Shown here piece after piece: positions 27,300 through 61,676 of a DNA stretch of 64,000 bases; position 1 is the stretch's first letter, and every line of letters starts with the position of its first letter. The notes beneath the pieces are model-generated. The model worked only from the letters and a program-made list of their open reading frames with translations. It ran no database searches and was not told the origin of the DNA. The stretch is from Sedimentisphaerales bacterium. Lineage in GTDB: Bacteria > Planctomycetota > Phycisphaerae > Sedimentisphaerales > SM23-30. Both the position numbers and the translations under genes were made by a program. The stretch is taken from the NCBI GenBank assembly GCA_963666285.1, contig OY762711.1; one strand, given 5' to 3'.

Positions 27300-28608
27300 A
27301 CTTCTACTGTCGAAGATCCGCCTAAAGCGGACTCTCCTGTCAACTTTCCAGCGACCTTCCATCGCTCGGCGTAGCCGTTTAAAATAGGTCGCGCAGCGAC
27401 ACCTTAATTTTTCACTTCGAATTATTCATTTTTCATTTAGCAAAGCTCGCAGCTGACTGCTGATTTCCGGTAGCCCCCGGTTTCAACCGGGGGACTAAAC
27501 AAACTCCCCATTATTTTAAAAGCATCCTCGCCGCCAGGCGATACCTTTTTTTCTTCTATCTCTTCTCATCTTTCAGATGCCTAATTTTGATATAATCTTT
27601 ACTCCCGCGTCAGCTTTAAAATAAGTCGTCCGCGAATGCGGACACCGCTTTTTTTCATCCTTTATACCTCATCCTTCAGGTGCCGTTTCACGGCACCTGT
27701 CTGGTCTGCCCACAATTCAAAAACAACAACTTACATCAATTCACGAAAAATCCCCTCCCCGCCGCACTACCTCCGCAACCCGCCTCGCACTCGTTCTTAT
27801 ATCCCAGCACTCTTCTATTTCTTACCGATTTTTAACCCATCCTTCACCCCGTCACTCTCACTTAATATGATAATTAGTCTTGCCGAACCCGTTTAAAATG
27901 AGTCGCGTAAACGACACCTTCACATCATTGGACTTGTCCAATGATGTGCCAGTGTGCGTAGCACGAATTTATCTTCCTACTGTTCTACTGCTCTCCTGTC
28001 AACTTTCCAGCGACCTTCCGTCGCTCGGCGTTAGCCGTTTAAAATAAGATGTCCGCGAAGCGGACACCTCAACTCTTACCTTTTACCTCATACCTCTTAC
28101 CTATGTTCGCGTTCCCGTCCGTATACCGCCGTATGCATTCAACGTTCCGCCGTATACTGTCCGCAGCCCGCAATTCACCGCCGCTCAAATCCATTTGCCT
28201 TTTTGCCTCCGTCCACCCGCCGCGCTGACCCGTACATATCCCGCACACCTCCCGTCACCCATCAATTAGCCGCGAGCGGTAGCGAGCAACCTTCCCTGGT
28301 ATCTGAAACCTGATACCTGACCACTGATTTTCTTGAAATAATCACCGCGTTTTTACAACCACCAAATCGCGAAAATCCAAAATCTTCAAAATTTTTATCC
28401 CGCTTACCCCCAACGCCTTACAAACTTCCAAGCCAACCAGCCCGCCCAAAAAATCAGCGCACTTTTGACATACCATCCAACAGTAGAGAGCTGACAAAAA
28501 AGCGAACCAACAAAAAAACAGCTCTCGATAAAACATAACAACGACGAAAACTTCGTCTTTTATATATATTTTGCTCTATTACAAATAAATATTTGACTCA
28601 ATTTGTCA
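27300..28608 (+). repeat. Modular non-coding repeat element, copy 1 (C-rich strand is +)
   Basis: Inverted homology to 60280-61676; five (CCG)TTTAAAA-hairpin-ACC(T) units at about 27375, 27515, 27614, 27889 and 28035; heptamer runs; internal duplication 27332-27386 vs 27991-28046. Outer boundary approximate. Confidence 0.9.
27921..27948. repeat. 28-bp palindrome CACATCATTGGAC-TT-GTCCAATGATGTG
   Basis: Perfect 13-bp arms; identical inverted copies at 61136-61163 and 61540-61567. Confidence 0.9.
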
Positions 28609-28970
28609 GTTAAAAATGTAATAATTTATGTCTCCAAATAATATTCATTGATAATTTATTAGAGGTGTTCTTGATTTAAACATAATGGATAAAATCTGAT
28701 GTAAAGTAATAAAACACAATCTTTTATGATGAAATAAAACACATTTCCTGATTTTACTGCCATACTTGCCTGTTATCTGATTACTTTCAAATTCACTGGT
28801 GTTATTAAGTATTTTTATAAAATTAGTTACATATATCCATTATCGAATTACAACCATCTATTGAATATATTTGTTATTTCTGATATTTTAGTATTTGTTT
28901 TTGTACATTGGAATATGATATTGTCATCAAAACTGCAAATTAAATATTTTACTTTTATCTAGGAATCATC

Positions 28971-30377
28971 ATGGATCGACGGACATTTCTCAAAAATTCT
29001 ACTTTAGTTATTGGTGCTGCTTCTGTAGGTGGTTGTAGTGCTTCATCAGTTGGTAAAATTAACCTGAATTCAAATATGTCTGGTTATTGCGCTCCTAAAA
29101 TACCGACTGTTAGAGTTGGTTTTATTGGTCTTGGAATGAGAGGCCCCGGTGCCGTAAAACGTATGACTCATATTGATGGCGTTGAAATTACAGCTATCTG
29201 TGATAAACGTAAATCTTGTACTGACAAAGTAGAAAAAATGCTTGCCGACATAGGCTTCCCAAAACCTGCAGTATATACTGATAGTGAAGATGCCTGGAAA
29301 AAAATGGTTCAAAGAGATGATCTTGACCTGATATATATCGCTACCCCTTGGGAATTTCATACCCCGATGGCTGTTTATGCTATGGAACATGGCAAACACG
29401 CTGCAACCGAAGTTCCGGCAGCTACTACAATGGAAGAATGCTGGAAACTGGTGGAGACATCTGAACGTACCAGAAAACATTGTGTTATGTTGGAAAACTG
29501 CTGCTACGACTTCTTTGAAATGCTTACCCTTAATATGATTCGGCAAGGTATGTTCGGCGAAGTTATTCATGGCGAAGGTGCCTATATCCATAATCTGGTT
29601 GGCTTGAATTTCAATAAAAATGGTTATGCTGATATGTGGCGTCTGAAACATAATGCAAAGAGAAATGGTAACTTGTATCCAACTCATGGGTTAGGGCCGG
29701 TTTGCCAATGCATGGATATCAATCGCGGCGACAAGATGGAATATCTCACCAGTATGTCAAGTAATGATTTTACCATGAATGTTGAAGCTAGGAAACGAGC
29801 TGAAAAAGACGATTTTTATAAACAGTTTGTTGATAAGCCATATCGTGGCAATATGAATACAACTATGGTCAGAACAGCAAAAGGCAGAACTATCAAAATT
29901 CAGCATGATGTCAGTTCACCAAGGCCGTATTCTCGTATCCATTTGGTTTCAGGCACAAAGGCTTTTGCCCAGAAGTGGCCTAAAACTCATATTGCTCTTG
30001 GCCATTCTGCGGTTAGTGAAGAAGAATTGCAGAAAATGTACGATCAGTATTCACCTGAGATAGTGGTGAAGATCGGCGAAATGGCTAAGCAGGTTGGCGG
30101 CCATGGAGGTATGGATTTCCTTATGGATTGGTCGTTGATAAATTCGCTTAGAAACGGGCTGCCTGTCGATATGGATTGTTATGATGCCGCTTTATGGTCC
30201 TGCATAACACCGCTGTCTATCAAATCTGTTGCTAACAGGTCTAATTCTGTTGATATACCTGACTTTACCAGGGGTAACTGGAAAACAAATACACCGGTAT
30301 CTCTGGAACTGAAAGCTATCAATGGTGTAAGAGCTATAAATAAAGCAGACTCAAGCGGCCAGCTTAAAGTCGAATAA
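28971..30377 (+). CDS. GH109 NAD+-dependent glycosidase (Gfo/Idh/MocA family), Tat-exported, possibly a lipoprotein
   Basis: MDRRTFLK twin-arginine motif and VGGC; GFIGLGMRG; ATPWEFH; ATEVPA; LENCCYD; YPTHG; GGHGGMDF. Confidence 0.9.
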   Translation: MDRRTFLKNSTLVIGAASVGGCSASSVGKINLNSNMSGYCAPKIPTVRVGFIGLGMRGPGAVKRMTHIDGVEITAICDKRKSCTDKVEKMLADIGFPKPAVYTDSEDAWKKMVQRDDLDLIYIATPWEFHTPMAVYAMEHGKHAATEVPAATTMEECWKLVETSERTRKHCVMLENCCYDFFEMLTLNMIRQGMFGEVIHGEGAYIHNLVGLNFNKNGYADMWRLKHNAKRNGNLYPTHGLGPVCQCMDINRGDKMEYLTSMSSNDFTMNVEARKRAEKDDFYKQFVDKPYRGNMNTTMVRTAKGRTIKIQHDVSSPRPYSRIHLVSGTKAFAQKWPKTHIALGHSAVSEEELQKMYDQYSPEIVVKIGEMAKQVGGHGGMDFLMDWSLINSLRNGLPVDMDCYDAALWSCITPLSIKSVANRSNSVDIPDFTRGNWKTNTPVSLELKAINGVRAINKADSSGQLKVE

Positions 30378-30428
30378 TTTCATATAGAATCCTGGTTTCA
30401 TAAATTGAAATTGAAAGTTCTGTTTAAT

Positions 30429-31886
30429 ATGCGAAATATCAATATGTTGAGAGCAAACAGGTTGTTATTTGCGGTATTGTTTGTTTGTGGTACATGTTCG
30501 ATCATTGACGCAAATCCTGTTGAGAAGCCAAATATTATAATTATATATTTGGATGACAGCGGGTGGGGGGATTATTCTCACAACGGTAATCCCACTATAA
30601 ATACTCCCAATATTTCTTTGCTAAAGCAGGACGGGATGTGTTTCACCCAGTTTTATGTTACCTCTCCTGCGTGTTCTGCTTCACGTTACTCACTGCTTAC
30701 TGGGCGATATCCCGGACGTTCTGGTTTTGGTAATTGGGTACTGAACCCAAATGAAAAAAAGCATCTTCATGATAAAGAGATTACAATTGCTGAAGGGTTG
30801 AAGTCAAAAGGCTATGTTACAGGCATATTTGGAAAATGGCATCTGGGTAGCCCCAATAAGAATAATAATTATGCACCGAAGAGTCTGCCGTTAGCTCATG
30901 GCTTTGATACCTGGATTGGAACAAATGTATCACACGATTATAACGACGCAAAACTGATGAAATCCGACCCGAAAGGTAGTGATCCAATTGCAGGGTATAG
31001 TACTATTGCTGTTAATCTGCCTTCAAATGCTAAAATCTGTGAGACTCTAACCGGTCGTTATACCGATGCTGCTGTGAATTTCATCAAGCAGAATAAAGAT
31101 AGACCGTTTTTTGCCTATATTCCGCATAATATGCCGCACTTGGGCATATATGCCAGTGATGAGTTTAAAGGACGTTCTCGTCGTGGGTTGCTTGGCGATG
31201 TAATGGAAGAGATTGATGATTCGGTAGGGCGTATTCGAAAAGCGGTTGAAGAGGCAGGCCTGAAAGAAAAAACGGTGATAATCTTTTCTTCTGATAATGG
31301 GCCATGGGTTAAATTCAGGGATTTGAAATATTCTCAGCATCAAAAATATGGCGAAGCCAGGATGAATGTCGGTTATGCAACACCATTTCGCGATGGTAAA
31401 GGCTCAACCTGGGAAGGCGGACACAGGGTTGCCGGCATATTCTGTTGGCCCGGTATGATACCTGCTAATATAATCGAGCAAAGACCTGCAAGTACACTTG
31501 ATATTTTGCCGACAGTCTTTAAGCTGGCTGGTGTTGAGATACCTGCTGATAGAGAGATTGACGGTAGGGATATTAGAATAATACTTATGCCTGATAAATT
31601 TAAGGGTGAACTGAGCACTTTTAGTTTTATGTATAGCTATTTTGACAATAAACCATCTGCATTTCGACAAGGGCCATGGAAGTTACATATACGAATTGGT
31701 TCGCAAACTGGAAATGATTATGGCTTTAAGGCTTCACGCCAGACGCCGCTGCTTTTCCAGGTAGAGCATGATTTAGGTGAACGTATAGATCGTGCTGCAG
31801 AGCTGCCAGAGATTGTTAAACAAATGCTTAATAAGTTGGAAACACTTGAAAATAAAATAGATAGTGAAGGTTCGTTTTGGGATTGA
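30429..31886 (+). CDS. Formylglycine-dependent (S1) sulfatase, secreted
   Basis: KPNIIIIYLDDSGWGD, CSASRYSLLTGRY, GKWHLG, SSDNGP, GKGSTWEGGHRV. Start may be 30429 or 30444. Confidence 0.92.
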   Translation: MRNINMLRANRLLFAVLFVCGTCSIIDANPVEKPNIIIIYLDDSGWGDYSHNGNPTINTPNISLLKQDGMCFTQFYVTSPACSASRYSLLTGRYPGRSGFGNWVLNPNEKKHLHDKEITIAEGLKSKGYVTGIFGKWHLGSPNKNNNYAPKSLPLAHGFDTWIGTNVSHDYNDAKLMKSDPKGSDPIAGYSTIAVNLPSNAKICETLTGRYTDAAVNFIKQNKDRPFFAYIPHNMPHLGIYASDEFKGRSRRGLLGDVMEEIDDSVGRIRKAVEEAGLKEKTVIIFSSDNGPWVKFRDLKYSQHQKYGEARMNVGYATPFRDGKGSTWEGGHRVAGIFCWPGMIPANIIEQRPASTLDILPTVFKLAGVEIPADREIDGRDIRIILMPDKFKGELSTFSFMYSYFDNKPSAFRQGPWKLHIRIGSQTGNDYGFKASRQTPLLFQVEHDLGERIDRAAELPEIVKQMLNKLETLENKIDSEGSFWD

Positions 31887-31914
31887 GCCAATGAAATTAG
31901 CAAGGGGTAGAGAA

Positions 31915-31951
31915 AAAAAAGATGCTGTATCAATTGATCAGCATCTTTTTT
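31915..31951. terminator. Bidirectional terminator between the sulfatase and phosphomannose isomerase genes
   Basis: AAAAAAGATGCTG...CAGCATCTTTTTT. Confidence 0.75.
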
Positions 31952-31988
31952 ACATGGAGGTGAGTTAAAATGATTCGGGTTGTGTCTT

Positions 31989-33008
31989 TTATGGTTTTTC
32001 GTAGCCCGGACATGTAACCAGTAGTTTTGAGCCGGGAGCCATTTCTATTTTACCGGATTCCATTGCCGGGATAAGGAACGATTCGCCTATTTTGAACTCG
32101 ACAATATCGTCCGGAATATTTGTGTTATAAACTTTTCCACTGCCTGCGACAGTCATTATGATCATAGGAGCTTCAGAACTGAAAGCGGCTGGGCTGTCCT
32201 TCGCGGTGACTTCTGCGACAGTGTAGAACGGACACTGGGTAAGCAATTTTGCTTCGCCTAGCTTTGAGCAGGCGTCCATCAATGGTTTGCTAACTGGATA
32301 TTCAGCATCTTCATTATAAATTTTCTTGTTTGAGAAGTTGATTGAATCCATTGATTCCTGGATATGCAGTTCACGGCTGTTTCCATCTTTATCGAGCCTG
32401 TTCCAGTCAAAAACGCGGTATGTCGTGTCTGACTGTGTGCCGATTTCAGCTGTTAAGGTGCCGGTTCCAAGGGCATGGATACGTCCGGCTGGTATCTGGA
32501 AGAAATCACCTGATTTGACAGGTATTTCAACTAAAGTGTCTTTGACTGTACCATCTTTGATAGCTTTTTCAAATTCATCTTTAGTAACACCGTCTCTCAG
32601 GCCGTTAAAAATGGTAGCACCTTCCTCGGCATGCATTATGTACCAGCATTCTGTTTTGGATCGTGCCTGGGGGTAAATTTTGCAGGTTTCGCTGTCAGGA
32701 TGTACCTGAACACTTAATTTATCCGCTGCGTCAATGAATTTGATGAGCAGGCCAAAATGCTCTTCTGACTGAATTTCGTTAAAACCCAGGTTCTTACCGT
32801 GCTTGTTGAGTAGCTCTCTAAAGGTAAGCTTATCGAACATGCCGCCGGAGATAATGGTTTGCTCTTCCGGCAGGTCAACAAGTTCCCAGCATTCACCAAT
32901 TGGTAGCTGGTCTTGTGGCAGTTCCTTGGCAAAGATAGTTCCAATTTTTTCACCGCCCCAAAGACGATGTTTTAAGATTGACTGAAATTTTACAGGTGGT
33001 ATTTGCAT
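31989..33008 (-). CDS. manA: Type I phosphomannose isomerase
   Basis: LWGG, IGECWE, LLIKFIDA...LSVQVHP, KTECWY, IPAGRIHA, SDTTYRVFDW; ATG at 33008 after AAGGA. Confidence 0.92.
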   Translation of the reverse strand: MQIPPVKFQSILKHRLWGGEKIGTIFAKELPQDQLPIGECWELVDLPEEQTIISGGMFDKLTFRELLNKHGKNLGFNEIQSEEHFGLLIKFIDAADKLSVQVHPDSETCKIYPQARSKTECWYIMHAEEGATIFNGLRDGVTKDEFEKAIKDGTVKDTLVEIPVKSGDFFQIPAGRIHALGTGTLTAEIGTQSDTTYRVFDWNRLDKDGNSRELHIQESMDSINFSNKKIYNEDAEYPVSKPLMDACSKLGEAKLLTQCPFYTVAEVTAKDSPAAFSSEAPMIIMTVAGSGKVYNTNIPDDIVEFKIGESFLIPAMESGKIEMAPGSKLLVTCPGYEKP

Positions 33009-33113
33009 TCTACTTTCCTTAGTGTAATTTATAAACCTTATACTTTTATATGTATACTCCATATTAATCAGCAATTAGCTGATTAATATGGAGTTAGAAT
33101 CTTTTATACTTGC

Positions 33114-34553
33114 TTAAATATTGCTGATTTTTAATATCTCAGGATGTTCATTATAAACTTTGATAATCAGCTCGCCAAACAGGGTGTTAGCCCAGGCAAA
33201 CCAGCTTCTTGAAAAGTTATTTGGGTTATCCTTGTTAAAGGATTCGTGCATAAATCCGGTTCCGGCATGAGTATTTTTCAACATGTGCAGACATAGCTGA
33301 ATCTCTTTCGGATCGGTACTGGTCAGAGCACGAAGAATAATGCCCATTGGCCAGATAGTATTGGGCCCGGTGTGAGGGCTTCCGGCACCTTCCGCATATT
33401 TGCCTCTGAGATACCATGGGTTGTCATCGCTAAGCAAATATTTACGGGTTCTGACATAGATATCGTCAGTTGGTTTATGGATTCCAAGGTAGCCAAGCGA
33501 AAGCAGGCTAGGCACATTTGCATCATCCATGAACAGGCAGTTACCAAAGCCATCAGTTTCGTAAGCATAGATTTTACCGTAACTAAGGTGGTCTTCTACT
33601 GCATATTTATTGATTGCGGACATCACCTCATCAGCAAATTCACTGCATTTCCTGGCAAATGCCTGATCTTTATAAATATCAGAATAGAAAGCTGCCATTT
33701 GCTTCATACTTTGAACAGCAAACAGGTTTGACGGTACCAGGAATGACAAGTTAGTAGCATCGTCAGAAGGGCGGAAGGATGAACAGATCAGTCCAACCGG
33801 CTTGATCGGACGGCCCACACCGTTGTGAACCGGTGCGTCAGTCATTCTATCAGTTGAACGAGCGAAACGATATGGAGTATCGTGGTTGCCGCCTTTTCGC
33901 TGTTCCTGTCTGAATACCTTGATAATAGTACGCATGGCTTTATCAAAATCAGCGTCGAAAATAGTCTTATCGCCGGTTGATTCATAGTAATAATTAGCCA
34001 GACGAACTACATAGCAGAGAGAGTCGATTTCCCATTTGCGTTCGTGTACTCCATCAATCGGAGCCGGTCTGTCAGATGCCCACTCAGTTTCCTTGGTCTT
34101 GTCCTTATAGAAGGCATTAGCATACGGATCCAGGTTAACGCACTTGATTTGGCGATTTACCAGGCCTTTTACCAGATTCTTCAACTTGGCATCATCATTT
34201 AACAGGGGCATATACGGCCATACCTGGGCAGTTGAGTCACGCAGCCACATGGCGTCAATATCACCGGTAATAATCACAGTATCCGGTTTTCCATCAATGA
34301 CTTCATAATCAACTGTAGTATCCAGAGTATTTGGATAGCAATTTTCGAACATCCAGGCCAGCTCAGGGTCTTTCATAAAGCTTTTAACTTCTTTAATCTT
34401 CTTTTCTACGCCCTCACTGATAAAAGTACGTTTGTTTACAGGCGGACGCTGAGATTTGAATTTGTCAGAAGTCTGGGCAAGTAAGGTACTTGCAATGCCT
34501 AATGACAAGGCCAGAGCTAAGCTAATTTTAGCTGTATTTTTTCTTCTTATCAT
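33114..34553 (-). CDS. GH125 exo-alpha-1,6-mannosidase, secreted
   Basis: FENCYPNTLDTT, TGDIDAMWLRDS, HERKWEIDSL, FRPSDD, MDDANVPSLL, MHESF, WFAWAN. Confidence 0.93.
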   Translation of the reverse strand: MIRRKNTAKISLALALSLGIASTLLAQTSDKFKSQRPPVNKRTFISEGVEKKIKEVKSFMKDPELAWMFENCYPNTLDTTVDYEVIDGKPDTVIITGDIDAMWLRDSTAQVWPYMPLLNDDAKLKNLVKGLVNRQIKCVNLDPYANAFYKDKTKETEWASDRPAPIDGVHERKWEIDSLCYVVRLANYYYESTGDKTIFDADFDKAMRTIIKVFRQEQRKGGNHDTPYRFARSTDRMTDAPVHNGVGRPIKPVGLICSSFRPSDDATNLSFLVPSNLFAVQSMKQMAAFYSDIYKDQAFARKCSEFADEVMSAINKYAVEDHLSYGKIYAYETDGFGNCLFMDDANVPSLLSLGYLGIHKPTDDIYVRTRKYLLSDDNPWYLRGKYAEGAGSPHTGPNTIWPMGIILRALTSTDPKEIQLCLHMLKNTHAGTGFMHESFNKDNPNNFSRSWFAWANTLFGELIIKVYNEHPEILKISNI

Positions 34554-34585
34554 AGGAAAATACTCCTTTAATGTTGCATATTTTT

Positions 34586-35686
34586 TTAACTGTCTAACTG
34601 GTTTAGTGCAAAAGCATAAGCACCAACAGAAATAGCATAGCTTGTATCTAAAGCAGCTTTGCCAATACCAATTCTCTTAAGTGAATCGTATTTGACTACT
34701 TTATCAGTACCAGGTACCGTAATATCTTTTACTTCTCCTTTGATAAATTCCTTGCATGCATTTTCATTTTCCAGGTCAAAGGTTTTCAGGGGTATTCTTG
34801 GCAGCTTATCGCCGCTATAACTTTCGATGGTACCGTTCATTTCAGCCAGAATAGCATCAATGAACATTGGATAAGCATTTGCCAGGCCACCGCCAACAAC
34901 AATTACACCGTCAAGAAGGGTAATGGCATTTGCCAGAGCGTCGCCAATAACTTCGCCCATTTCAGCAAAAGCAGTCTTTGCAGCTTCAACATTACCTTCC
35001 TGCTGACCTTGAGCGATAGCAAAAATGTCCTTTGGTTCCGGGGTATCAGCAAAGTCCATACCGGTGATCCTGGCATAAGTGCCTTTTACAGCTCGGATTG
35101 CAACTCCTTCTTCAGCAAAGCATTTAGGGTGACGTTTGTTCCTGGTAATCCATATTTCACCGGCACAGGAGTTGTCGCCGATGTGCAATTTGCCGTCAGA
35201 AACAATACCGCCGCCAAAACCGGTGCCAAGAGTGATACCAAATAGCTTGTTGAACCGCTTTGGGGAACCGGCCTTTTCCAGCATTTCATTGACTTTAGGA
35301 AGGAATCCGGCCATTGCTTCGCCGTAAACGAATAAGTCGCCATCGTTATTGATGAATACCGGAATGTTGAACTTGCTTTCCAGGAATGGTCCTAATGCTA
35401 CATTATGAAATGCAGGCATATTCGGCGGGGTGCCGATAATACCGTTTGGATAGTCAGCAGGACCTGGGAAGGCAAAGCTGATAGCTACTGGTTTATCGTC
35501 AAGTTTGTCAATAACCTGGGTGAAACCGGCGATTAAAGTTTCAAGACATTTGTCCAGATCTTTAGGCTCAGTCGCCAAACGAACAGGTTCTACGATTTCT
35601 TTCATGCCCTGAATGGCAGAGAATACCAGGTTGGTACCTCCAACATCAAGGGTGAGTACTATTCTTTTATCTGATTTATAATCCAT
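34586..35686 (-). CDS. ROK-family sugar kinase (probable manno/glucokinase)
   Basis: TLDVGGT, FPGP, INND, TLGTGFGGG, GE.W; no HTH. Confidence 0.88.
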   Translation of the reverse strand: MDYKSDKRIVLTLDVGGTNLVFSAIQGMKEIVEPVRLATEPKDLDKCLETLIAGFTQVIDKLDDKPVAISFAFPGPADYPNGIIGTPPNMPAFHNVALGPFLESKFNIPVFINNDGDLFVYGEAMAGFLPKVNEMLEKAGSPKRFNKLFGITLGTGFGGGIVSDGKLHIGDNSCAGEIWITRNKRHPKCFAEEGVAIRAVKGTYARITGMDFADTPEPKDIFAIAQGQQEGNVEAAKTAFAEMGEVIGDALANAITLLDGVIVVGGGLANAYPMFIDAILAEMNGTIESYSGDKLPRIPLKTFDLENENACKEFIKGEVKDITVPGTDKVVKYDSLKRIGIGKAALDTSYAISVGAYAFALNQLDS

Positions 35687-35712
35687 TTTTTATCCTTTCA
35701 AAACACAAAATT

Positions 35713-52813: not shown

Positions 52814-52898
52814 AATAATCTGCTTTGAGGTTTGTCAGGAATGATTGAATCGTTAAGGCGATATTACTGAATGATAAGTTAATATAGTTAAAAAAGCA

Positions 52899-52942
52899 TA
52901 AGGGTGGACTTTCTGATATTGCAGATCGTCCGCCCTTAATTT
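52899..52942 (+). terminator. Probable terminator
   Basis: TAAGGGTGGAC...GTCCGCCCTTA inverted repeat downstream of the stop codon. Confidence 0.5.
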
Positions 52943-53165
52943 GTTAAATTATCCTAACAAGAAACAAGTAAAAAAACGTATATATACATTATGTAATAGT
53001 TTATGCTGGAGGAAGTAACTGATATCTAGTAAACAATTAAACTGTATGAAAAAAGCAGATTATGTTGGCAAAAGAATTTATTGAGCTGATACGGATGAAT
53101 TAAAACCATAAGTAGTGTAATTTTAGTGAAAGTTGCAGTAAGAAGAATTAGATTAGGAGTCTAAA

Positions 53166-55610
53166 ATGAAAACAACAAGAATGATTTTGGTTTTTTTTGT
53201 GTTAATGGCAAGTTCTATGGCATATTCTGCCCAGAATGTAAAAGTTGATATCTTTACTAAACAGGTGGGACCTGATTTGAGTCCTGAACTGTACGGCCTG
53301 TTTTTTGAAGATATTAATTTTGCCGCAGATGGTGGTCTTTATGCTGAGTTAGTCCAGAACAGGTCTTTTGAATATTACCCGGTAGAAGGTGGAAACAGGC
53401 TTAGCAGGCAATATCAACCTCTATTTGCCTGGGAAAAGGTTGAAAAAGGTGGTGGCCGCTGTAGTTTGCAGGTTGATAAAATAATACCACTGAATCGGAA
53501 TAACCCAAATTATCTTGTTATAAGAATAGAGCAGCCGGGTGATGGCGTAGGGGTAAAGAATAGCGGTTTTCAGGGAATTTGTTTGGATAAAGGGGAAAAA
53601 TATGATTTTTCATTTTATGCCCGCAGAACCGGCCGTGGCGGAGCTCCAGTCAGTGTAAGCCTGGTTGATGGAGAAGGAAATGAATGTGGTTCCGTATCTT
53701 TTGATCGTATCATAAATGACTGGCGTAAATATGAGGCGGTTATTACTTCTGATAAAACTGTTGATGATGCATCTTTAGTAATCACAACTAAAGGTAATGG
53801 CACTCTTTATCTCGATATGGTGTCATTGTTTCCTCAGAAAACGTATAATAACAGGAAAAATGGGCTGAGAGCGGACCTGGTACAGGCACTGAAGGATTTG
53901 AATCCTAAGTTCTTCCGCTTTCCGGGAGGCTGTATTGTTCACGGTCATGGTCTGGAAAATGCATATCGCTGGAAAGACAGTGTAGGGGATGTTGCCGAGA
54001 GAAAAGGAAACTGGAACCGCTGGGGCTACCATCAGACATATGGTTTGGGTTACTTTGAATATATGCAGTTATGCGAAGATATTGGTGCGACTCCATTGCC
54101 TGTACTGCCGGTTGGTGTGTCCTGTGGCTTTAATGATCCGTATCAGTGTGTGCCGATGGATGAGCTTCAGCCATGGATTGATGATGCTGTTGACCTGATA
54201 GAATTTGCCAATGGTCCAACCACGAGTAAATGGGGTAAACTTCGTAGTAAAATGGGCCATCCTGAACCATTTAATCTGAAATATATTTGTCTGGGAAATG
54301 AAGAGCATGACAGGCGTGAATTCCATGAACGAATGCCTTTGTTTGTAGAAGCGGTAAGAAAAGCCCATCCGGAGATCAAAATACTCGGTACTTCGGGCCT
54401 TAGTGCCAATATTCCGATGTATTCTTTTATGAAAGATCTAGGAGTTTACAGCTCAGATGAACATTATTATGAAAGCCCTGAATGGTTTATCAATAATGCC
54501 AGAAGGTTTGACTCATTTGACAGAAGCGGGCCTAAAATATTTGTTGGTGAATATGCCTCGCATTCAAATATGGGTAATGCCATGTATAATGCTGTTTCAG
54601 AAGCAGCGTTTCTTACCGGTGTTGAGAGAAATGGTGATATCGTTGATATGACCTGCTATGCTCCGCTTTTTGCCAAGTATGAGCGTACTCAATGGGCGGC
54701 AGCGGATTTGATCTGGTTTACTAATCGTGAAGTGGTAAAAACGCCAAGCTATTATGTTCAGCAGATGTTTGGCTGCAATAAAGGAGATATGTATCTGCCG
54801 ACTAAGATTTCTAAGATGGCTTCTGCGGCACCTGAAACTGTTTCAGGTTGGGTTGGCATAGCCACATGGAGCACATCTATTGAAGTTGAAAGTGCTTATG
54901 TACAGGATAATAAAATTGATTTTAACAACATCAAAGTTTTGAGTGGCGATTTTGTGTTCAAGGTAAAAAATCTAGCTCAAATGAACCCAGATATTCAGCC
55001 GGCAATGGGTGTTTTTCCTGACAAATATGATTCTGATATTGTTGTTTACAAAGTCAGGGCTAAAAAGCTGCGTGGCGATGAAGGGTTTCTAATAGTTTTT
55101 GGCTATGAAAATGATAACAACTATTACTGGTGGAATGTTGGTGGTTGGAATAATACCCAGCATGCGATTGAAAAAGCTGTTGATGGTCAAAAATCAACTT
55201 TAATATCAAGAAACGGTTCTATCGAGACTGGCAAATGGTATGACCTTAGGGTAGAGCTTTCGCCTGGAAGGATTAAATGCTTTATTGATGACCAAATAAT
55301 TCACGATTGTGAACTTGAAAGACCGGAAATTTTTGCCGGATCAGCAATAGATAAAAAGAATAATGCTGTAATTGTTAAACTGGTAAATCCAACAGAAGAA
55401 GATGTTACTGCAAAGATTAACCTGGATGGTGTTCGTGAGTCTGATATGTCTGCAAAAGTACTTGAATTGACAGGTAAACGCAGTGATATCAATAACCTGG
55501 AGAATCCGGATAATGTTAAGACGCAAGAAAGTAGCATAAAAGTAGGCAGTCAGTTTGAAAGTCCGCTGCCGGCATGTTCAGTAAAGATGATAATAGTTGA
55601 TTTGAAATAA
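53166..55610 (+). CDS. GH51 alpha-L-arabinofuranosidase, secreted
   Basis: YGLFFEDIN.AADGGLYAELVQNRSFE, RFPGGC, LGNEE, DEHYY, FVGEYA, YAPLF. Confidence 0.93.
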   Translation: MKTTRMILVFFVLMASSMAYSAQNVKVDIFTKQVGPDLSPELYGLFFEDINFAADGGLYAELVQNRSFEYYPVEGGNRLSRQYQPLFAWEKVEKGGGRCSLQVDKIIPLNRNNPNYLVIRIEQPGDGVGVKNSGFQGICLDKGEKYDFSFYARRTGRGGAPVSVSLVDGEGNECGSVSFDRIINDWRKYEAVITSDKTVDDASLVITTKGNGTLYLDMVSLFPQKTYNNRKNGLRADLVQALKDLNPKFFRFPGGCIVHGHGLENAYRWKDSVGDVAERKGNWNRWGYHQTYGLGYFEYMQLCEDIGATPLPVLPVGVSCGFNDPYQCVPMDELQPWIDDAVDLIEFANGPTTSKWGKLRSKMGHPEPFNLKYICLGNEEHDRREFHERMPLFVEAVRKAHPEIKILGTSGLSANIPMYSFMKDLGVYSSDEHYYESPEWFINNARRFDSFDRSGPKIFVGEYASHSNMGNAMYNAVSEAAFLTGVERNGDIVDMTCYAPLFAKYERTQWAAADLIWFTNREVVKTPSYYVQQMFGCNKGDMYLPTKISKMASAAPETVSGWVGIATWSTSIEVESAYVQDNKIDFNNIKVLSGDFVFKVKNLAQMNPDIQPAMGVFPDKYDSDIVVYKVRAKKLRGDEGFLIVFGYENDNNYYWWNVGGWNNTQHAIEKAVDGQKSTLISRNGSIETGKWYDLRVELSPGRIKCFIDDQIIHDCELERPEIFAGSAIDKKNNAVIVKLVNPTEEDVTAKINLDGVRESDMSAKVLELTGKRSDINNLENPDNVKTQESSIKVGSQFESPLPACSVKMIIVDLK

Positions 55611-55631
55611 TAGTATTGTGGAGATTATGTA

Positions 55632-57710
55632 ATGAAAAAAATGTTATTGTTTGTATTACTTCTGATTTTTTCAGCGTCGCTGCCTGCCCAGACAGGCGGC
55701 GATGCATTATATCTTTTTAATCGGGCACCTTTACTTGATAAGCCCTATACAGAGCTGCCTTTAGGGTCAGTTTCGCCTGAAGGCTGGCTGGAAGATGAGC
55801 TAAAACGTATGGCAAATGGTATGACCGGCCATCTGGATGAATGGTACCCGGAGGTTTGTGGTCCGCGAAATGCGTGGCTGGGTGGTGATGGTGATACCTG
55901 GGAAAGAGGTCCATACTGGATCGATGGTTTATATCCGCTGGCTAAACTGCTGAAAGATAAAGAGCTTGAGCAGAAAGCTCAGAAATGGGTAGATTGGACA
56001 TTGAATAACCAGCGTGAAGATGGTTATATTGGTCCAAGGCCGTTTGGTCCAGACGGCCCTCCAAAGAATCCGCCAAGAGGAGCCCAGGTGGAAGAGCCGG
56101 AAGACTGGTGGCCGAGAATGGTCATGCTGAAAATACTGCAGCAGCATTATATGGCGACCGGAGACAAGCGTGTAATTGACGTTATGACTAAGTATTTCCG
56201 TTACCAGCTTGAGCATTTGCCGGATGAACCTTTGGAAGCTCCTCGTGGTGGTAAAGGCGGCAGCTGGTGGGCTCGCCAGCGTGGCGGCGATAACCTTATG
56301 TCAGTATTGTGGTTGTATAATGTAACAGGTGATAAGTTTCTTCTCGAACTGGCAGATATCCTGTATAAACAGACATTACCCTGGACAGATTTATTTCTTG
56401 AAGGCGAAATTCTGGCTGTTCAAATGGAGTCACCGGCAGACCCGTACGGAAGGCATGTACTACACTGTGTAAATCTTGCCCAGGGTATAAAAACCCCGGC
56501 TATCCGATATCAGCAGGATAAATCCCCAGTTCAGCTAGATGCGTTAAAAAAAGCATTTAATGATATTCATGCGTATCACGGACAGCCGACAGGTTTGTAT
56601 GGTGGTGATGAAGAAATGCATGGTCCCGGACTTGATAGAGGTTCGGAATTCTGTACAGCAGTTGAGATGATGTTTTCGCTGGAAAAGATGATAGAAATTA
56701 CCGGTGATGTTCAGTTTGCTGATCACCTGGAGAAAATAGCTTATAATGCTTTGCCAACCCAGGCGAGCGATGATTATTATACCCGTCAGTATTTTCAGCA
56801 GTCTAACCAGGTATTGATTACCGCCGGTGACAGATCATTTGAAGATGATGGCGGATATAGAAATGTAAGCGGGCTGTTGCAGGGCTACCCGTGTTGTACT
56901 TGTAATTTTCATCAGGGCTGGCCAAAGTTTATCCAGCATATGTGGATGGCTTCGATTGACAGGGGGCTGGCAGCGATGGCGTATGGTCCAAGTACCATAA
57001 CAGCAAAAGTATCGAACGGGCAGGAAGTTACGATAAAAGAAGAAACTTACTATCCGTTTGAAGATACTATAAGGTTTACGGTCAGTGCCGGGGGAGAAGT
57101 TAAATTCCCGTTACATCTGCGAGTACCAGGCTGGTGTAATAATTCCAGGATAACAGTAAACGGTAAAGTTATGCCGCAGACTAAAGCAGGCCAGATAGCA
57201 ATTTTGAAGCGTACCTGGCAAGATGGTGATACGGTAGTGGTAACTTTGCCAATGGAGCTTAGAAAATCATACTGGTACCACCGTTCTGCTGCGATAGAGC
57301 GTGGTCCGCTGGTGTATGCCCTGCGAGTTGAGGAAGACTGGTCAGAGATATATCAGCCTGCTCCTGAAGGTGTTCCGGCAGATGGTATGCATCGCGGTTA
57401 TCGTGAATGCAGACCGGGTACGCCCTGGAATTATGCTTTGCTGAGAGATACACTGGATAACCTGGACAATAAAGTCAAGGTTATCGAGACAGGTAAAACG
57501 GAAGCTAACCCATGGAATCTTGAGAATGCCCCGATTGAGCTGGAAGTACCCGGGATAAGGCTGCCATACTGGACGATTTATAACAATTCAGCCGGTCCGG
57601 TACCGCTGTGTCCGGTAGAAAAGCCGGCAAATGCAGAATTAGAGACAATTAAGCTGGTTCCATATGGTTGTACTACATTGCGAATAAGTGGTTTTCCATG
57701 GATATGGTAA
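55632..57710 (+). CDS. GH127/GH146-like beta-L-arabinofuranosidase (Cys/Zn type), secreted
   Basis: P.GWL...L...A.G.TGHL, WER.PYW.DG, HCVN, GSEFCTAVE, LEKIAYNALP, YPCCTCN, ERGPLVYAL. Confidence 0.87.
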   Translation: MKKMLLFVLLLIFSASLPAQTGGDALYLFNRAPLLDKPYTELPLGSVSPEGWLEDELKRMANGMTGHLDEWYPEVCGPRNAWLGGDGDTWERGPYWIDGLYPLAKLLKDKELEQKAQKWVDWTLNNQREDGYIGPRPFGPDGPPKNPPRGAQVEEPEDWWPRMVMLKILQQHYMATGDKRVIDVMTKYFRYQLEHLPDEPLEAPRGGKGGSWWARQRGGDNLMSVLWLYNVTGDKFLLELADILYKQTLPWTDLFLEGEILAVQMESPADPYGRHVLHCVNLAQGIKTPAIRYQQDKSPVQLDALKKAFNDIHAYHGQPTGLYGGDEEMHGPGLDRGSEFCTAVEMMFSLEKMIEITGDVQFADHLEKIAYNALPTQASDDYYTRQYFQQSNQVLITAGDRSFEDDGGYRNVSGLLQGYPCCTCNFHQGWPKFIQHMWMASIDRGLAAMAYGPSTITAKVSNGQEVTIKEETYYPFEDTIRFTVSAGGEVKFPLHLRVPGWCNNSRITVNGKVMPQTKAGQIAILKRTWQDGDTVVVTLPMELRKSYWYHRSAAIERGPLVYALRVEEDWSEIYQPAPEGVPADGMHRGYRECRPGTPWNYALLRDTLDNLDNKVKVIETGKTEANPWNLENAPIELEVPGIRLPYWTIYNNSAGPVPLCPVEKPANAELETIKLVPYGCTTLRISGFPWIW

Positions 57711-57810
57711 AGTTATAAAAGACTTTACAAAGTATATGTGACATTTATAGAATATAAAGTATTGTTTTTGCTACAACTTAATGCAACATTGAAAAAGTAC
57801 GGAGATCGAA

Positions 57811-60189
57811 ATGAATTTTAGAACTTTGATTGCGGTATTTGTATTGTTTTTGACAATTTCATTAAATTCAGTTCAGGCCCAGGTTGGACAGGAATTTGCC
57901 GGTAACCCGGTCTTTCCAGGCTGGTATGCCGATCCGGAGGTGATAATCTACGGAGATGAATACTGGATTTATCCAACATATTCAGCCCCGTATAATGAGC
58001 AGTTATTCTTTGACTGTTTTTCGTCAAAAAATCTGGTGGATTGGACCAGGCATTCCAAGATCCTGACTAATAAAGAGGTAAAATGGGCCTGGCGTGCGAT
58101 GTGGGCGCCAGGAGTTATATCGAAAGATGGTAAATATTACCTGTTTTTTACCGCTAATGATGTTCATCCGAACGAGATCGGCGGGATTGGCGTAGCAGTA
58201 GCCGATAGTCCGGGCGGTCCGTTTAAGGACCATATTGGCAAGCCCCTGATCAATCATATAGTGAATGGTGCTCAGCCTATTGACCAGTATATTTTCCTTG
58301 ATGATGATGGTACGTATTATATGTACTACGGCGGCTGGCGTCATTGTAATATAGTTAAACTAAACGAAGATTTTACCGGGCTGGTACCTTTTGATGATGG
58401 TCTGACCTACCGGGAAGTAACGCCGGATAACTATGTTGAAGGCCCATTCATGTTCAAAAGGGATGGCAAATATTACTTCATGTGGTCAGAAGGCGGCTGG
58501 ACAGGTCCGGATTATTCGGTAGCGTATGCAATAGCAGATTCGCCGTTTGGCCCGTTTAAACGAGAGGGAAAGATACTCAAGCAAGATCCGGAAATTGCGA
58601 CCGGAGCAGGTCATCATTCCTGTTTTAATATACCGGGAACAGACAAATGGTATATAGTTTATCATCGTCGTCCGCTAACAGAAACAGACGGCAACAGCAG
58701 GGTGACATGTATTGATGAGATGCATTTTGATGATAATGGTAAAATACTGCCGGTAAAAATGACAAATAAGGGTGTTAAATGGCAGACTATTGATGCTGTT
58801 GGAAAAGTATCGCAGGAAGGCGGTGCTGACTGGTCGACGTTTAAATATCCTGAAGTAATAATAGTTGATAAGGATAACGGTCAGAGTGAAGGTTCCAAGC
58901 TGGTAAAGAAGATGATTCCTGACCTAGAATCATTTATTAAAGATATTTCTTTGGGTGTCTGTAAAACCCTGTATAAATCGCCTGATGAAGTTCCGGCTTT
59001 TGAAACTCTGGTTTTTGAGTTAGAAGATACCGATGGTGTAGCTTATAAAATGGGTAATAACCCCAAGATCAAGATTCATATGAGTACCAGGTATCTTGCC
59101 GATCAGTATCGCAGGATGGGTGATGAAGCGATAACATATGAGATTGCCGGTATTAACTGGCATGAGCTGACCCATGCGTATCAACATTCTCCGAGAGCGA
59201 AAAGCCGAGAAGATCATTTTGGTGCAATTGAAGGTATGGCAGATGCTGTCAGGATAACAGCCGGTTATCATAAGACAAGAAAGCCTAGGCCGGGCGGTAA
59301 CTGGAACAGCGGCTATACAACAACCGGTTTCTTTATGGAGTGGTTACAAAATACCTATGATAAGGATTTTGTCTATAAGTTTAACCAATCATGCCGGGAT
59401 ATGAGGCCATGGAGCTGGGATAAGGCGTGTAATTCTATTGCAGGAAAAGGCATACAGTTGTTGTGGAATGAGTATCAGTGGCATCTGAAAGGCGGCGGCA
59501 GTGAGGCTGTGGCCCAATTTACAGTAAATAAAAACATTGTTGGTAAGGGCCAGGAAATAAAGCTGGAGAATACATCTTTTAATGAGCCGGAATCATACAA
59601 ATGGGAATTTCCAGGTGCGACCCCATCATCAAGTACAGATAAATCACCGGTAATAAAATATAATGCTGCCGGTCAGTATGATATAACCTTGTCAGCGACA
59701 AATAAAGATGGGAGTACCACCCAGACAGAAAAGGGATGTGTACTGGTTTTGGAAGAGAACGGTTCGATAGTAAGTCTGGCATCGATACGGGAAGGCATTT
59801 CGTGTGTGCCAGAGCGGGCGATGCCACGTGAAGGGGTAAGAAACCTGGTTGATGGTAATCCCGAGACGAAATATTGTACCCAGTCCAGGGCGTCACAGAT
59901 AATATATTCGCTGACAAAGCCGGCCCAGTTGTATGTGTATTCGATAACTTCTGCTAATGATGCACCTGGCAGGGATCCTGCCAGCTGGACACTTGAAGGA
60001 TCAAACGATAACAGCATCTGGGAGCCGATTGATACTCAAAAAGATGTTACTTTTGCCGGCAGGTATCAGAAGAAGCAGTTTTTAGTTAAGGGCAACAGTA
60101 AGAAATATACATATTACAGGTTAGATATGAGGTCTAAGAGTGATCCGATTTTTCAGTTTGCCGACCTTGAGCTTATAGGAGCATTCTAA
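57811..60189 (+). CDS. Fusion of GH43, BSP-family zinc metallopeptidase, PKD and discoidin/CBM32-like domains
   Basis: GH43 YADPE, WAP, QPIDQ, YVEGP, GHH; WHELTHAYQ...IEGMADAVR; PKD SYKWEFPG...GQYDITL; YSITSANDAPGRDPASWTLEGSND. Confidence 0.88.
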   Translation: MNFRTLIAVFVLFLTISLNSVQAQVGQEFAGNPVFPGWYADPEVIIYGDEYWIYPTYSAPYNEQLFFDCFSSKNLVDWTRHSKILTNKEVKWAWRAMWAPGVISKDGKYYLFFTANDVHPNEIGGIGVAVADSPGGPFKDHIGKPLINHIVNGAQPIDQYIFLDDDGTYYMYYGGWRHCNIVKLNEDFTGLVPFDDGLTYREVTPDNYVEGPFMFKRDGKYYFMWSEGGWTGPDYSVAYAIADSPFGPFKREGKILKQDPEIATGAGHHSCFNIPGTDKWYIVYHRRPLTETDGNSRVTCIDEMHFDDNGKILPVKMTNKGVKWQTIDAVGKVSQEGGADWSTFKYPEVIIVDKDNGQSEGSKLVKKMIPDLESFIKDISLGVCKTLYKSPDEVPAFETLVFELEDTDGVAYKMGNNPKIKIHMSTRYLADQYRRMGDEAITYEIAGINWHELTHAYQHSPRAKSREDHFGAIEGMADAVRITAGYHKTRKPRPGGNWNSGYTTTGFFMEWLQNTYDKDFVYKFNQSCRDMRPWSWDKACNSIAGKGIQLLWNEYQWHLKGGGSEAVAQFTVNKNIVGKGQEIKLENTSFNEPESYKWEFPGATPSSSTDKSPVIKYNAAGQYDITLSATNKDGSTTQTEKGCVLVLEENGSIVSLASIREGISCVPERAMPREGVRNLVDGNPETKYCTQSRASQIIYSLTKPAQLYVYSITSANDAPGRDPASWTLEGSNDNSIWEPIDTQKDVTFAGRYQKKQFLVKGNSKKYTYYRLDMRSKSDPIFQFADLELIGAF

Positions 60190-60279
60190 TAATGAGCAAG
60201 GTTATAGCCTTGACCAGAACCCGGAGACGAATAGAAACTGTAATGTCTAATGACCGTTAATTCTGAGCGGATAGGCCCT

Positions 60280-61676
60280 TGACAAATCGTTTTATATTCA
60301 ATTATTCAAAGAGCAAAATTTATTATTAAGACGAAGTTTTCGTCGTTGTTAAGTTTTAGAGAGAGCTGATTTTTATTGGTTCTCTTTTTTTGTTAGCTCT
60401 CTACTGTTGGATGGTATGTCGCAAGTGCGCTGATTTTTTGGGCGGGATGGTTGGTTTGGAAGCTTGTAAGGTGTTGGGGGTAAAGTGGATAATAATTTTG
60501 GAGAATTTGGATTTTCGCGATTTGGTGGTTGTAAAAACGCGGTGATTTTTTCGAGAAAATCAGTGGTCAGGTATCAGGTTTCAGATGCCAGGGAAGGTTG
60601 CTCGCTACCGCTCGCGGGTAATTGATGGGGGACGGAGGGAGTGCGGCATATATACGGGACATCGCGGCGGTAGGACGGCGGCGAAAAGGGAAACGGATTT
60701 GAGCGGCGGCGAATTGCGGGCTGCGGACAGTATACGGCGGAACGTTGAATGGGTGCGGCGGTATACGGACGGGAACGAAGCGGAGATGGGAAGGCAGGTA
60801 AAAAGTAATAGGTAAAAGGTAAGAGTTGAGGTGTCTTGTACCGTACGGTACAAGACCTTATTTTAAACGGCTGGCGGCGAACGACCAAAGGTCGTTAGAG
60901 ATTAGAGCAGATGAGCAGTAGAACAGGCAATCAGCTACGAGCAACGAGCGGCCAGCGGCCAGCAAGCAGCCAAGCTGCTAGAGATTAGAGGAGATGAGCA
61001 GCTAAACAGCAACGAGCGACCAGCGGCCAGCGGCCAGCAAGCAGCCAAGCTGCTAGAGATTAGAGGAGATGAGCAGCTAAACAGCAACGAGCGACCAGCG
61101 GCCAGTGAAGAGGAAATACGTGCTACGCACTGGGGCACATCATTGGACAAGTCCAATGATGTGAAGGTGTCGCTTACGCGACCTTTTTTAAACGGTTACG
61201 GGGTGTGAAGGAGGGGTAAAAAAACGGAATGAAATAGAAGAGTGGGGGGATATAAGGAAGAGTGCATGGCGGGTTTGGGAAAGTGTGCGGCGGTGAGGGG
61301 ATTTTGCGAGAATTGTTGTAAGTTATTGTTTTTTGATTGTGGGCGGACCAGAAAATAAGTGATGAGTGAAGAGTTAATAGTGAAGAATTGAGGTGTTCGC
61401 CTAACGGCTCATGACTTGTTTTAAAGCTGATGCCGAACGACCAAAGGTCGTTAGAGATTAGAGCAGGTGAGCAGTTGAACAGGCAATCAGCTACGAGCTA
61501 CGAGCGGCCAGTACATTAACTTCGTGCTGCGCACTGGGGCACATCATTGGACAAGTCCAATGATGTGAAGGTATCGCCTGGCGGCGATGGTATTTTTGTG
61601 TACTGATGCGAAAGTGTGGGTGATTTGCGAAAAGGTGTCTCTACGCGACAGCTAGGGTATGTTCATTTAAACGGTA
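60280..61676 (-). repeat. Modular non-coding repeat element, copy 2 (inverted relative to copy 1)
   Basis: Reverse complement aligns with 27300-28608; units at 60829-60870, 61165-61195, 61391-61430, 61569-61598 and 61633-61674; internal duplications 60877-60955 vs 61433-61511 and 61119-61168 vs 61523-61572. Confidence 0.9.
60948..61105. repeat. 75-bp tandem duplication (two full units plus a partial unit)
   Basis: Identical units begin at 60948 and 61023 (GCGGCCAGCGGCCAGCAAGCAGCCAAGCTGCTAGAG...). Confidence 0.9.

Follow-up and report, generated by a model that had tools for sequence, protein, structure and literature searches.

Gene-less elements facing each other across a glycan-utilisation locus of a Sedimentisphaerales bacterium share a motif with a phage-derived capsid operon

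What are the two inverted, gene-less elements that face each other across 31.7 kb of glycan-use genes in this window (the whole 64,000-nucleotide stretch of DNA that was analysed), and do they serve those genes? A preliminary description had proposed that 27300-28608 and 60280-61676 are homologous in inverted orientation, and these elements, hereafter copies A and B, indeed align at 85% identity over 618 columns (27980-28577 against 60310-60926), with a second aligned block at 75% over 271 columns (27700-27970 against 61114-61352). Homology and inversion stand; the two copies are, however, colinear in the two conserved blocks only, and the strings of modules between those blocks differ. The roughly six mismatches that had been counted by eye in 28281-28400 proved to be exactly six, with zero gaps, and the same end, a sharp one, points inward in both copies as described. 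Also as described, neither copy holds a credible gene, ORFs of at least 60 aa reaching just 64-104 aa. A coding remnant was rejected as the identity of the element: 3-base periodicity is absent from the variation among the 30 copies introduced below, which indicates that copies A and B are non-coding, and stops occur in nearly all frames. In read-derived contigs each of the two copies is connected to unique flanking DNA at a depth (~25) typical of single-copy sequence, and thus the copies are not an assembly artefact; no contig spans a copy, and contig depth summed over the core rises to ~1100. Copies A and B, a pair with 87.6% identity (rank 51 of 435 pairs) and a longest identical run of 42 nt, are not each other's special partners.

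Both belong to a family of 30 copies in the chromosome, 15 per strand, in agreement with the earlier suggestion of a dispersed, gene-less element. The suggestion that the family is lineage-specific also holds, given that the full 540-nt core has no long match in 40 relatives, where the two hits are 32-33 bp in length. Exact-pattern scans for the core gave 0 matches in each of the viral, genome and metagenome collections, from which records near the source genome were possibly excluded. Each copy, 1.1-1.8 kb long, combines a core with a fixed length of 540 nt and heptamer and hairpin modules in shuffled order; a second block of 200 nt is usual and was found in 28 of the 30. The outer ~170 bp of the core contain two direct repeats, 110-112 bp apart, flanking an IHF-like site, and two anchors lie 187-189 nt from each other in every one of the 30 copies (Table 1). 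The first IHF-like site departs by 1-3 mismatches, mostly 2-3, from the IHF consensus, and the boxA-like word comes within 0-1 mismatch of the boxA consensus in only 10 of the 30. On the family consensus, the CGG words are phased more regularly than 20 randomly placed words would be (P=0.002). Linkage among copies falls from an r2 of 0.40 to ~0.1 beyond 10 nt, with four-gamete violations up to 0.9. As for replichore bias, the count is 19 of 30 copies, which is not notable. The repeat at ~4.13-4.16 Mb differs in sequence from the family. Readings of parts of the element as Xer/dif, attC, sigma-54 or sigma-70 sites were judged by eye against the consensuses and dropped.

Table 1. Coordinates of the two copies, their parts and the enclosed genes.
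Feature	Position	Strand	Remarks
Copy A, whole element	27300..28595	+	sharp outer end ~28595, inner end ragged
Copy A, ragged tail: hairpin and heptamer modules	27300..27700	.	GTAG-tagged palindrome 27470-27493
Copy A, second conserved block	27700..27870	-	IHF-like site 27720-27734
Copy A, variable middle: heptamer runs and GC hairpins	27870..28100	.	includes 28-bp palindrome 27921-27948
Copy A, CGG-word array, ~10.2 bp phasing	28100..28285	-	family consensus
Copy A, capsid-operon motif, read outward	28335..28492	+	85/162 bases identical, ungapped, to DNA upstream of the portal gene; profile test
Copy A, motif parts			distal repeat R2 28341-28353; A/T tract; IHF-like site 28412-28423
Copy A, motif parts, continued			proximal repeat R1 28450-28462; conserved GTAGAG box 28483-28488
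Copy A, leader-like end	28493..28595	+	hairpin, palindrome 28543-28557, boxA-like word near 28572-28592
Enclosed glycan-use genes, 31.7 kb	28609..60279	.	GC 0.409 vs 0.412 for the chromosome
Copy B, whole element, inverted	60283..61620	-	outer end toward the stop codon of a GH43 gene
Copy B, capsid-operon motif	60395..60552	-	79/162 bases identical, ungapped, to DNA upstream of the portal gene
Copy B, motif parts			box 60399-60404; R1 60425-60437; IHF-like site 60464-60475; R2 60534-60546
Copy B, phased CGG array	60600..60790	+	approximate coordinates, taken from alignment
Copy B, variable middle	60790..61170	.	three 75-nt units, palindrome 61136-61163
Copy B, second conserved block	61175..61352	+	IHF-like site 61318-61332

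The main feature of the family, absent from the preliminary description, is a motif common to the copies and a capsid operon. The outer ~170 bp of the core are also present upstream of the single chromosomal portal-scaffold-capsid operon, which encodes a portal protein, a scaffold protein and the major capsid protein. When trained on the 30 copies alone, a profile scores 65.5 bits at a diverged copy, 56.1 bits at a truncated copy and 51.5 bits upstream of the portal gene, against 28.9 bits at the next-best site, which is inside a gene, and a maximum of 24.5 bits in the reversed-genome control; a local profile search by itself did not find the portal site of the source genome. The same copies-only profile scores 40.3 bits upstream of the portal gene of a congener. 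The source genome and congener G003 have the same genes next to portal. In the source genome an IS-like ORF lies between the scaffold and capsid genes, and the operon showed no tail gene. Of the 151 genomes of the order, 118 have a portal gene, at one locus among the matches listed. When 30 portal upstream regions were searched, a motif profile built from relatives matched 13, all on the same strand and one of them in the training set; a direct repeat at 100-122 bp spacing was found in 14, compared with 6, 5 and 2 at control spacings, and the copies-only profile exceeded 25 bits in only 3. The motif was absent upstream of the terminase-like gene in the six of six cases tried, and the divergent large-terminase gene is unlinked to the scaffold and capsid genes. 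We found no published description of the phage-derived capsid operon of this order in a literature search that left subscription journals mostly uncovered.

The motif is present in 106 of the 151 genomes of the order according to a model, used instead of a strict IHF-like-block pattern that was too narrow (6 of 151). Relatives gave 47 motif loci, 39 of them distinct; these are best hits and in some cases served to train the model. Among the 39, the box adjoins an HNH-AP2 gene in 13, a gene for a protein with the STGP motif in three and a portal gene in two, and all 18 of these recognisable neighbours read away from the motif. The remainder comprises 14 decamer arrays and seven loci with something else. 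In genomes chosen for the motif, HNH-AP2 matches number 9-23 per genome in four of five and 3-29 in seven of eight, and the motif lies upstream of 19 of the 28 HNH-AP2 genes that have room upstream. Free-standing HNH-AP2 homing endonuclease genes are known from phages. Like those genes, the ones in relatives occur as many diverged, partly broken copies in unrelated places; here, in contrast, they are chromosomal and tied to the motif of a host capsid operon, and the copies in the source genome are gene-less. Neither HNH-AP2 nor STGP genes were found in the source genome, nor HNH-AP2 genes in G003, and the mover is therefore missing. The protein with the STGP motif belongs to no family in Pfam, PHROGs or Atlas, and so a small-terminase role for it is only a guess.

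The number of copies, their anatomy and constant spacing, the sharing of their motif with the portal gene, and the multicopy cassettes of motif and HNH-AP2 in relatives are established. The copies are likely to be selfish DNA carried along by a domesticated system of virus-like particles, rather than brackets made for the sugar genes. More specifically, we give about an even chance to the reading that they are selfish, non-autonomous derivatives of motif cassettes, wherein the motif would be an activator-dependent promoter of a particle system resembling a gene transfer agent (GTA). Under this proposal one protein would bind both repeats, a DNA-bending protein would loop R1 and R2 together, and transcription would run out of the sharp end. 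A promoter-bearing cassette would be switched on along with the particle genes, and its endonuclease would cut new sites, with the repair copied from an existing copy. In relatives such cassettes still carry the HNH-AP2 endonuclease gene behind the motif. Given that this gene is undetectable in the source genome, the copies there are probably relics that frequent short-tract recombination keeps alike, and they are now targets for IS110 and IS3-type elements. Descent from HNH cassettes is only putative for the body of these copies, with its CGG array and second block. Particle production by the capsid operon is putative. The source genome has only one gene of the HU/IHF family, and by eye no standard -35/-10 pair fits at the motif. 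The promoter model leaves facing pairs of copies 32-35 kb apart, described below, unexplained. Should the motif prove to be a promoter, the copies would be selfish DNA riding the particle regulon of the host, and the motif would provide a handle for a regulator search. A large unexplained repeat family is tied here to a capsid operon of phage origin that most genomes of an entire order have kept.

A known system offers a close comparison. In the part of the published account available to us, an upstream activator site and IHF drive the GTA cluster and ~18 scattered promoters of Caulobacter crescentus (PMC11150451). As far as that part of the account goes, these GafY/IHF-controlled promoters have several traits in common with the present motif: each belongs to a particle operon of phage origin that the host has kept, each combines an upstream site with an IHF-like site and a box close to the gene, and in each case the signal is scattered across the chromosome (PMC11150451). 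The source genome has the same motif upstream of particle genes, namely the portal operon, and its head and packaging genes appear to be host-kept and vertically inherited, as judged from occurrence. Relative to the same part of the account, the present candidate system differs in having no domain of the GafZ/GafA type (a PF20057 search gave no match in the source genome, whereas the Caulobacter control does match), two direct repeats rather than one short element, mostly gene-less mosaics of 1.1-1.8 kb of which 17 of 30 face gene ends, and an operon in which no tail gene was seen.

The modules listed in the preliminary description are backed by Pfam (GH109, sulfatase, PMI/GH125/ROK/MFS/GH92/PTS, an ECF sigma with a weak FecR partner, and GH51-type, GH127 and GH43). 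However, glycan genes (GH38, GH92, GH3 and rhamnosidase) also fill 11987-27271 beyond the left copy, so that copies A and B do not mark the limits of this region. Three other facing pairs enclose, respectively, groEL, dnaJ and tRNA-synthetase-like genes; glycosyltransferases; and mixed genes, as named by eye from translations. Because glycan genes continue outside and the other facing pairs enclose housekeeping genes, the proposal that the elements are joints for glycan loci was abandoned. Six gaps between copies measure 35 kb or less where 4.6 would be expected (P=0.30), and 71% of random placements produce one or more facing pairs at such a distance. The flanking of glycan genes by two copies is mostly chance. 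The interval is only a candidate for a mobile or invertible unit. What survives of the bracket idea is the 32-35 kb spacing common to four facing pairs.

That spacing enters the main rival of the promoter reading. Here the motif would be a pac- or cos-like packaging signal used by the domesticated terminase and capsid; the scattered copies would initiate packaging of the neighbouring chromosome and be spread in particles, and two facing copies separated by about one headful would delimit a cargo unit. We consider this unlikely, although several observations favour it. Phased 10-bp arrays adjoin the motif, and the divergent large-terminase gene is conserved, being 44-50% identical to those of five relatives. 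With its pair of repeats flanking an IHF-like bend, the motif is reminiscent of lambda cosB, which in the portion of the source available has its IHF site between R3 and R2 (PMC4669245). On the evidence of partial accounts, protein-binding repeats on either side of an IHF-like bend beside packaging genes, and multiple chromosomal copies, are common to our elements and to cosB and phage pac or pseudo-pac sites, but the repeats in the source genome are direct, whereas lambda R2 is opposite to R3, and ours are long elements, not chance look-alikes, in which neither a nick site nor a small terminase was recognised (PMC4669245; PMC10996546). The four facing pairs are 31,967, 32,690, 34,129 and 34,643 bp apart (scan P ~0.03); for this spacing P is 0.0006-0.007 given the window pair and 0.03 without it. 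In three genomes of one other genus, 6 of 10 facing pairs fall within 24-40 kb as against 2 of 16 other pairs (permutation P 0.004), but that distance range was derived from the source genome, and the three genomes, for which the lists are incomplete, are kin. Among HNH-AP2 cassettes listed from eight genomes, 0 of 9 facing and 7 of 39 other pairs lie in the same range, and neither clustering of copies in all orientations (P 0.16) nor a periodogram (P 0.115) is significant. The 18 of 18 recognisable neighbours that read away from the motif are promoter-like, and there is no evident route by which packaging would yield an inverted copy one headful away. Somewhat smaller still is the chance we give to the broadest form of this idea, that a Planctomycetota order has a domesticated phage head and terminase and chromosomes seeded with selfish cassettes that bear the signal of this system and direct packaging of adjacent DNA. 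The 31.7-kb glycan block would then be one transferable unit, because facing pairs 32-35 kb apart would mark headful-sized cargo, and a GTA-like particle with non-autonomous parasites of its own would perform site-directed gene transfer. Were the motif a packaging signal, gene transfer would have fixed starting points, unlike in known GTAs, where packaging is mostly random.

Three further explanations fare less well. The copies could be promoter cassettes domesticated by the host, placing neighbours such as the GH109-sulfatase pair under the particle regulator. Motif and spacing are conserved in 30 of 30 copies, and copy A is directed at GH109, which starts 371 nt beyond its end and is transcribed away from it. 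We nonetheless regard this as improbable, given that recombination among copies could also explain the conservation, that just 13 of the 30 copies point at a gene start while 17 face a gene end, that G003 has two motif matches and G001 none, and that IS3-type ORF pairs lie in or beside five copies and IS110-type ORFs beside five. The original idea that copies A and B are a substrate for recombination or inversion, by which the glycan locus is assembled or flipped, is the least credible. In its favour are the inverted orientation and 85% identity of the copies, the free short-range recombination of the family, and the GH109 of the interval, which was not found in three congeners; against this, there are several such pairs, others of which enclose housekeeping genes, the glycan genes extend beyond the left copy, no identical run exceeds 42 nt, and GC skew inside the interval has the same sign as in the flanks. 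Moreover, none of 20 tyrosine-recombinase matches (14 checked directly, the rest by coordinates) lies within 22 kb of a copy. The suggested search for RAYT/HUH, tyrosine-recombinase or four-helix-bundle genes next to other copies gave none: these genes, reverse transcriptases and Y1 transposases are present beside no copy, a PF13366 search gave no match, and in place of a cognate mover only IS110 and IS3-type passengers recur.

An ordinary MITE, a REPIN/BIME-type repeat or a large structured RNA gene is very improbable, and membership of these classes is largely refuted. REP-like hairpins, one GTAG-tagged palindrome, heptamer runs resembling those by four-helix-bundle genes, and the existence of Y1-type transposase genes in the genome speak for such an origin. 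However, terminal inverted repeats have a mean best match of 13.2 of 20 in the 30 copies against 12.2 in controls, target duplications are 7.2 nt against 7.0 nt, and the inner end is ragged. The RNA fold of the consensus is weak: that of one strand (-114.5 against -106.5+-5.2 for shuffled columns) has 82 of 128 pairs broken, and that of the other (-65.1 against -55.9+-3.9) has 2 two-sided pairs; Rfam gave 0 matches in the window at gathering score, and nothing approaching such a score when searched both by gathering score and by E-value. The 1.1-1.8 kb unit is not a doublet of inverted REPs, none of the five Y1 matches in the genome adjoins a copy, and the printed flanks of two Y1 genes have no shared repeat by eye. 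In the part of the literature on REP/BIME and REPIN repeats available to us, an intergenic and multicopy nature, small hairpins and targeting by the IS110 family are in common with our elements, which are far longer, with ordered, length-fixed blocks and no RAYT gene beside copies (PMC3116915). Runs of a 7-base unit are likewise shared with intergenic heptamer direct repeats such as TAACTGA, as described in the available part of that report, but here they are mere filler between conserved blocks (PMC4679880). GTAG-tagged palindromes number five in the chromosome, one of them near a copy.

The inverted stretches of the window, copies A and B, were suspected from the sequence to belong to a dispersed family, and a BLAST search of the genome with a 541-nt core bears this out, with 39 matches of which 30 are long. 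The outer blocks of the two copies are 85% identical over 618 columns and the inner blocks 75% over 271 columns, the 6 mismatches counted by eye in a 120-nt stretch of copy A against copy B are correct, and both copies are indeed non-coding. Read-derived contigs connect both to unique flanking DNA. This element family is real and apparently undescribed; literature listings on the order or phylum with GTA, capsid or repeat topics, mostly from outside subscription journals, gave no description of the family, its motif or the capsid operon treated below. The family is a variation on known kinds (a dispersed mosaic repeat and a GTA-type regulon), and what is new here is the order-wide range of the motif, its HNH-AP2 endonuclease gene partner and the spacing of facing pairs.

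Read from its sharp outer end, the element has a leader-like 100 nt and then a 170-bp motif, behind which CGG words form an array with a phase of ~10.2 bp (P=0.002). Next come heptamer and hairpin modules in a string that varies between copies, a second block (present in 28 of 30 copies) and a ragged tail, and the whole reaches 1.1-1.8 kb with insertions excluded. The anchor-to-anchor distance is fixed at 187-189 nt in all 30 copies, and the larger indels noted by eye, of 10, 11, 12 and 21 nt, are close to whole helical turns. Mean identity among copies is 83%, with alleles shuffled within 10-20 nt, a pattern indicative of frequent recombination over short tracts. Five copies have IS3-type ORF pairs within or next to them, and five have IS110-type ORFs next to them. 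Terminal inverted repeats and target duplications at the copies did not exceed controls, and no RNA fold of the element was convincing. Contigs C2, C3 and C4 of the genome (~65-66 kb each) each carry a tyrosine recombinase and are free of element copies.

Features of the genome G000 (C1, chromosome) and of extracted loci (L)
Feature	Coordinates (strand)	Remarks
Copy A	window 27300..28595 (+)	
Copy B	window 60283..61620 (-)	
Fused PTS chain	window 39374-41917 (-)	Combines HPr, enzyme I and EIIA domains; mannose-use operon
Second, more diverged element pair	C1:1250023-1250515 and 1254763-1255400	Inverted, ~5 kb apart; phased CGG arrays, same tail modules
RHS-repeat-like coding fragment	near C1:2513400	Short; inside tail of copy at 2513619 (by eye)
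Four-helix-bundle (PF05635) genes	C1:45310-46043, 8296, 42099, 5096210, 5876409	Flanked by same heptamer/hairpin modules; at one locus, two copies in tandem plus the start of a third
Capsid operon	C1:64914-70510 (L086:9915-15511)	Portal, scaffold, major capsid, 210-aa gene of no family; IS-like ORF between scaffold and capsid
Large-terminase-like gene	C1:5592979	Conserved; apart from capsid operon
Terminase gene group	C1:5592979-5598102 (L130)	This large-terminase gene, which is divergent, behind ABC-ATPase-like, acetyltransferase-like and 140-aa genes
STGP-motif proteins	L034:1675-2340, L078:903-1451, L080:826-1503	Directly behind motif; no known family
CRISPR-like array	L032 (G075:C181)	Short; 36-base repeats, ~320 nt past motif on inner side

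The gene content between copies A and B is as first described, but glycan genes also occupy 11987-27271, outside the left copy. The proposal that the pair is a dedicated bracket for glycan loci must be abandoned, because close facing pairs (neighbouring inverted copies with sharp outer ends inward) are common by chance, others enclose genes of other kinds, and A and B are not closest relatives. The long copies split evenly by strand (15 and 15), gaps of at most 35 kb number 6 against 4.6 expected (P=0.30), and 71% of random placements yield at least one facing pair that close. In the other facing pairs, the genes between the copies, named by eye, are of chaperonin, tRNA-synthetase, glycosyltransferase or mixed types. 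The A-B identity ranks 51 among 435 pairs, with closer relatives of B elsewhere in the genome. Of the 30 copies, 13 have the outer end turned toward the start of a gene and 17 toward the end of one.

A facing-pair spacing of 32-35 kb is suggestive. Motif-to-motif distances in four facing pairs, the window pair included, are 31,967, 32,690, 34,129 and 34,643 bp; given the window pair, three further such pairs have P 0.0006-0.007 depending on window width, and tests of spacing gave P 0.16 (all-gap scan), 0.03 (best orientation class) and 0.115 (periodogram). Among pairs listed for three genomes of one other genus, distances of 24-40 kb occur in 6/10 facing versus 2/16 other pairs (P 0.004), a comparison in which the size window was taken from G000, the supporting genomes are kin and the pair lists are incomplete. 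For HNH-AP2 cassettes listed in 8 genomes, however, with short AP2-only matches excluded, the counts are 0/9 facing versus 7/39 other.

Long BLAST matches to the core are absent from 40 relatives, and when the outer 275 nt were modelled from sequence only, 9 of 150 other genomes gave weak matches. When aligned, these share two direct repeats 110-112 bp apart, with a TAA-N3-TT word and A/T tract between them, and an outer conserved box. A second model found the motif in 106/151 genomes of the order, many with at least 15 sites, and in 3/151 of a phylum-wide sample, one of these outside the order. Of 47 loci given for relatives, 39 were distinct after duplicates were dropped, and the box-side neighbour is HNH-AP2 in 13, an STGP-motif gene in 3, portal in 2, decamer arrays in 14 and other in 7; the three gene classes are all transcribed away from the motif. 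HNH-AP2 genes, in genomes picked for having the motif, are multicopy, diverged and partly broken, and 19/28 have the motif upstream. Searches of G000 for HNH-AP2 and STGP-motif genes found neither. Atlas look-alikes of STGP-motif proteins are unnamed clusters from Planctomycetota, Acidobacteriota and viruses. In another family of the order (L033, L042, L044-L047, L051-L053), the motif is paired with 10-base-repeat arrays, which may fill the role of the G000 CGG arrays; their spurious translations resemble NKPN/KTNP.

In a congener, one motif match lies upstream of the portal gene, and the G000 ortholog at C1:64914 has the same upstream motif, its upstream DNA matching copy A at 85/162 bases, ungapped. 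A profile trained solely on the 30 copies gives this site 51.5 bits, where the highest control score is 24.5, and the only higher-scoring sites outside the family are one diverged and one truncated copy. The portal gene was found in 118/151 genomes of the order. The relatives' profile matches 13 of 30 portal upstream regions, all on one strand, and the copies-only profile exceeds 25 bits in 3 of them. A direct repeat at motif spacing is present in 14 of the 30, versus 6, 5 and 2 at control spacings. The repeat sequence drifts across lineages, and the two repeats within one locus stay alike. The chromosomal portal-scaffold-major capsid operon is conserved across the order, with no tail gene seen; among the matches listed, those closest to the capsid protein (67-70%) are two Sedimentisphaerales records and a third labelled Pirellulales, so Sedimentisphaerales is the probable order of the host.

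Because its orientation to downstream genes is consistent, we favour reading the motif as a promoter. Its layout matches that reported for the Caulobacter GTA cluster (PMC11150451). It does not belong to that system: no GafZ/GafA-type domain was found in G000, which has one HU/IHF gene. The motif might instead be a packaging signal, given its likeness to lambda cosB, but the cosB repeats are opposed (PMC4669245). If the motif is a promoter, cassettes carrying it would be switched on together with the particle genes, HNH-AP2 could spread them through cut-and-repair, and the G000 copies may be gene-less descendants of such cassettes.

The motif is absent upstream of the terminase gene in 6/6 regions. 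Transcription of the terminase gene group runs away from a CI/LexA-like repressor gene, whose product may regulate the particle system.
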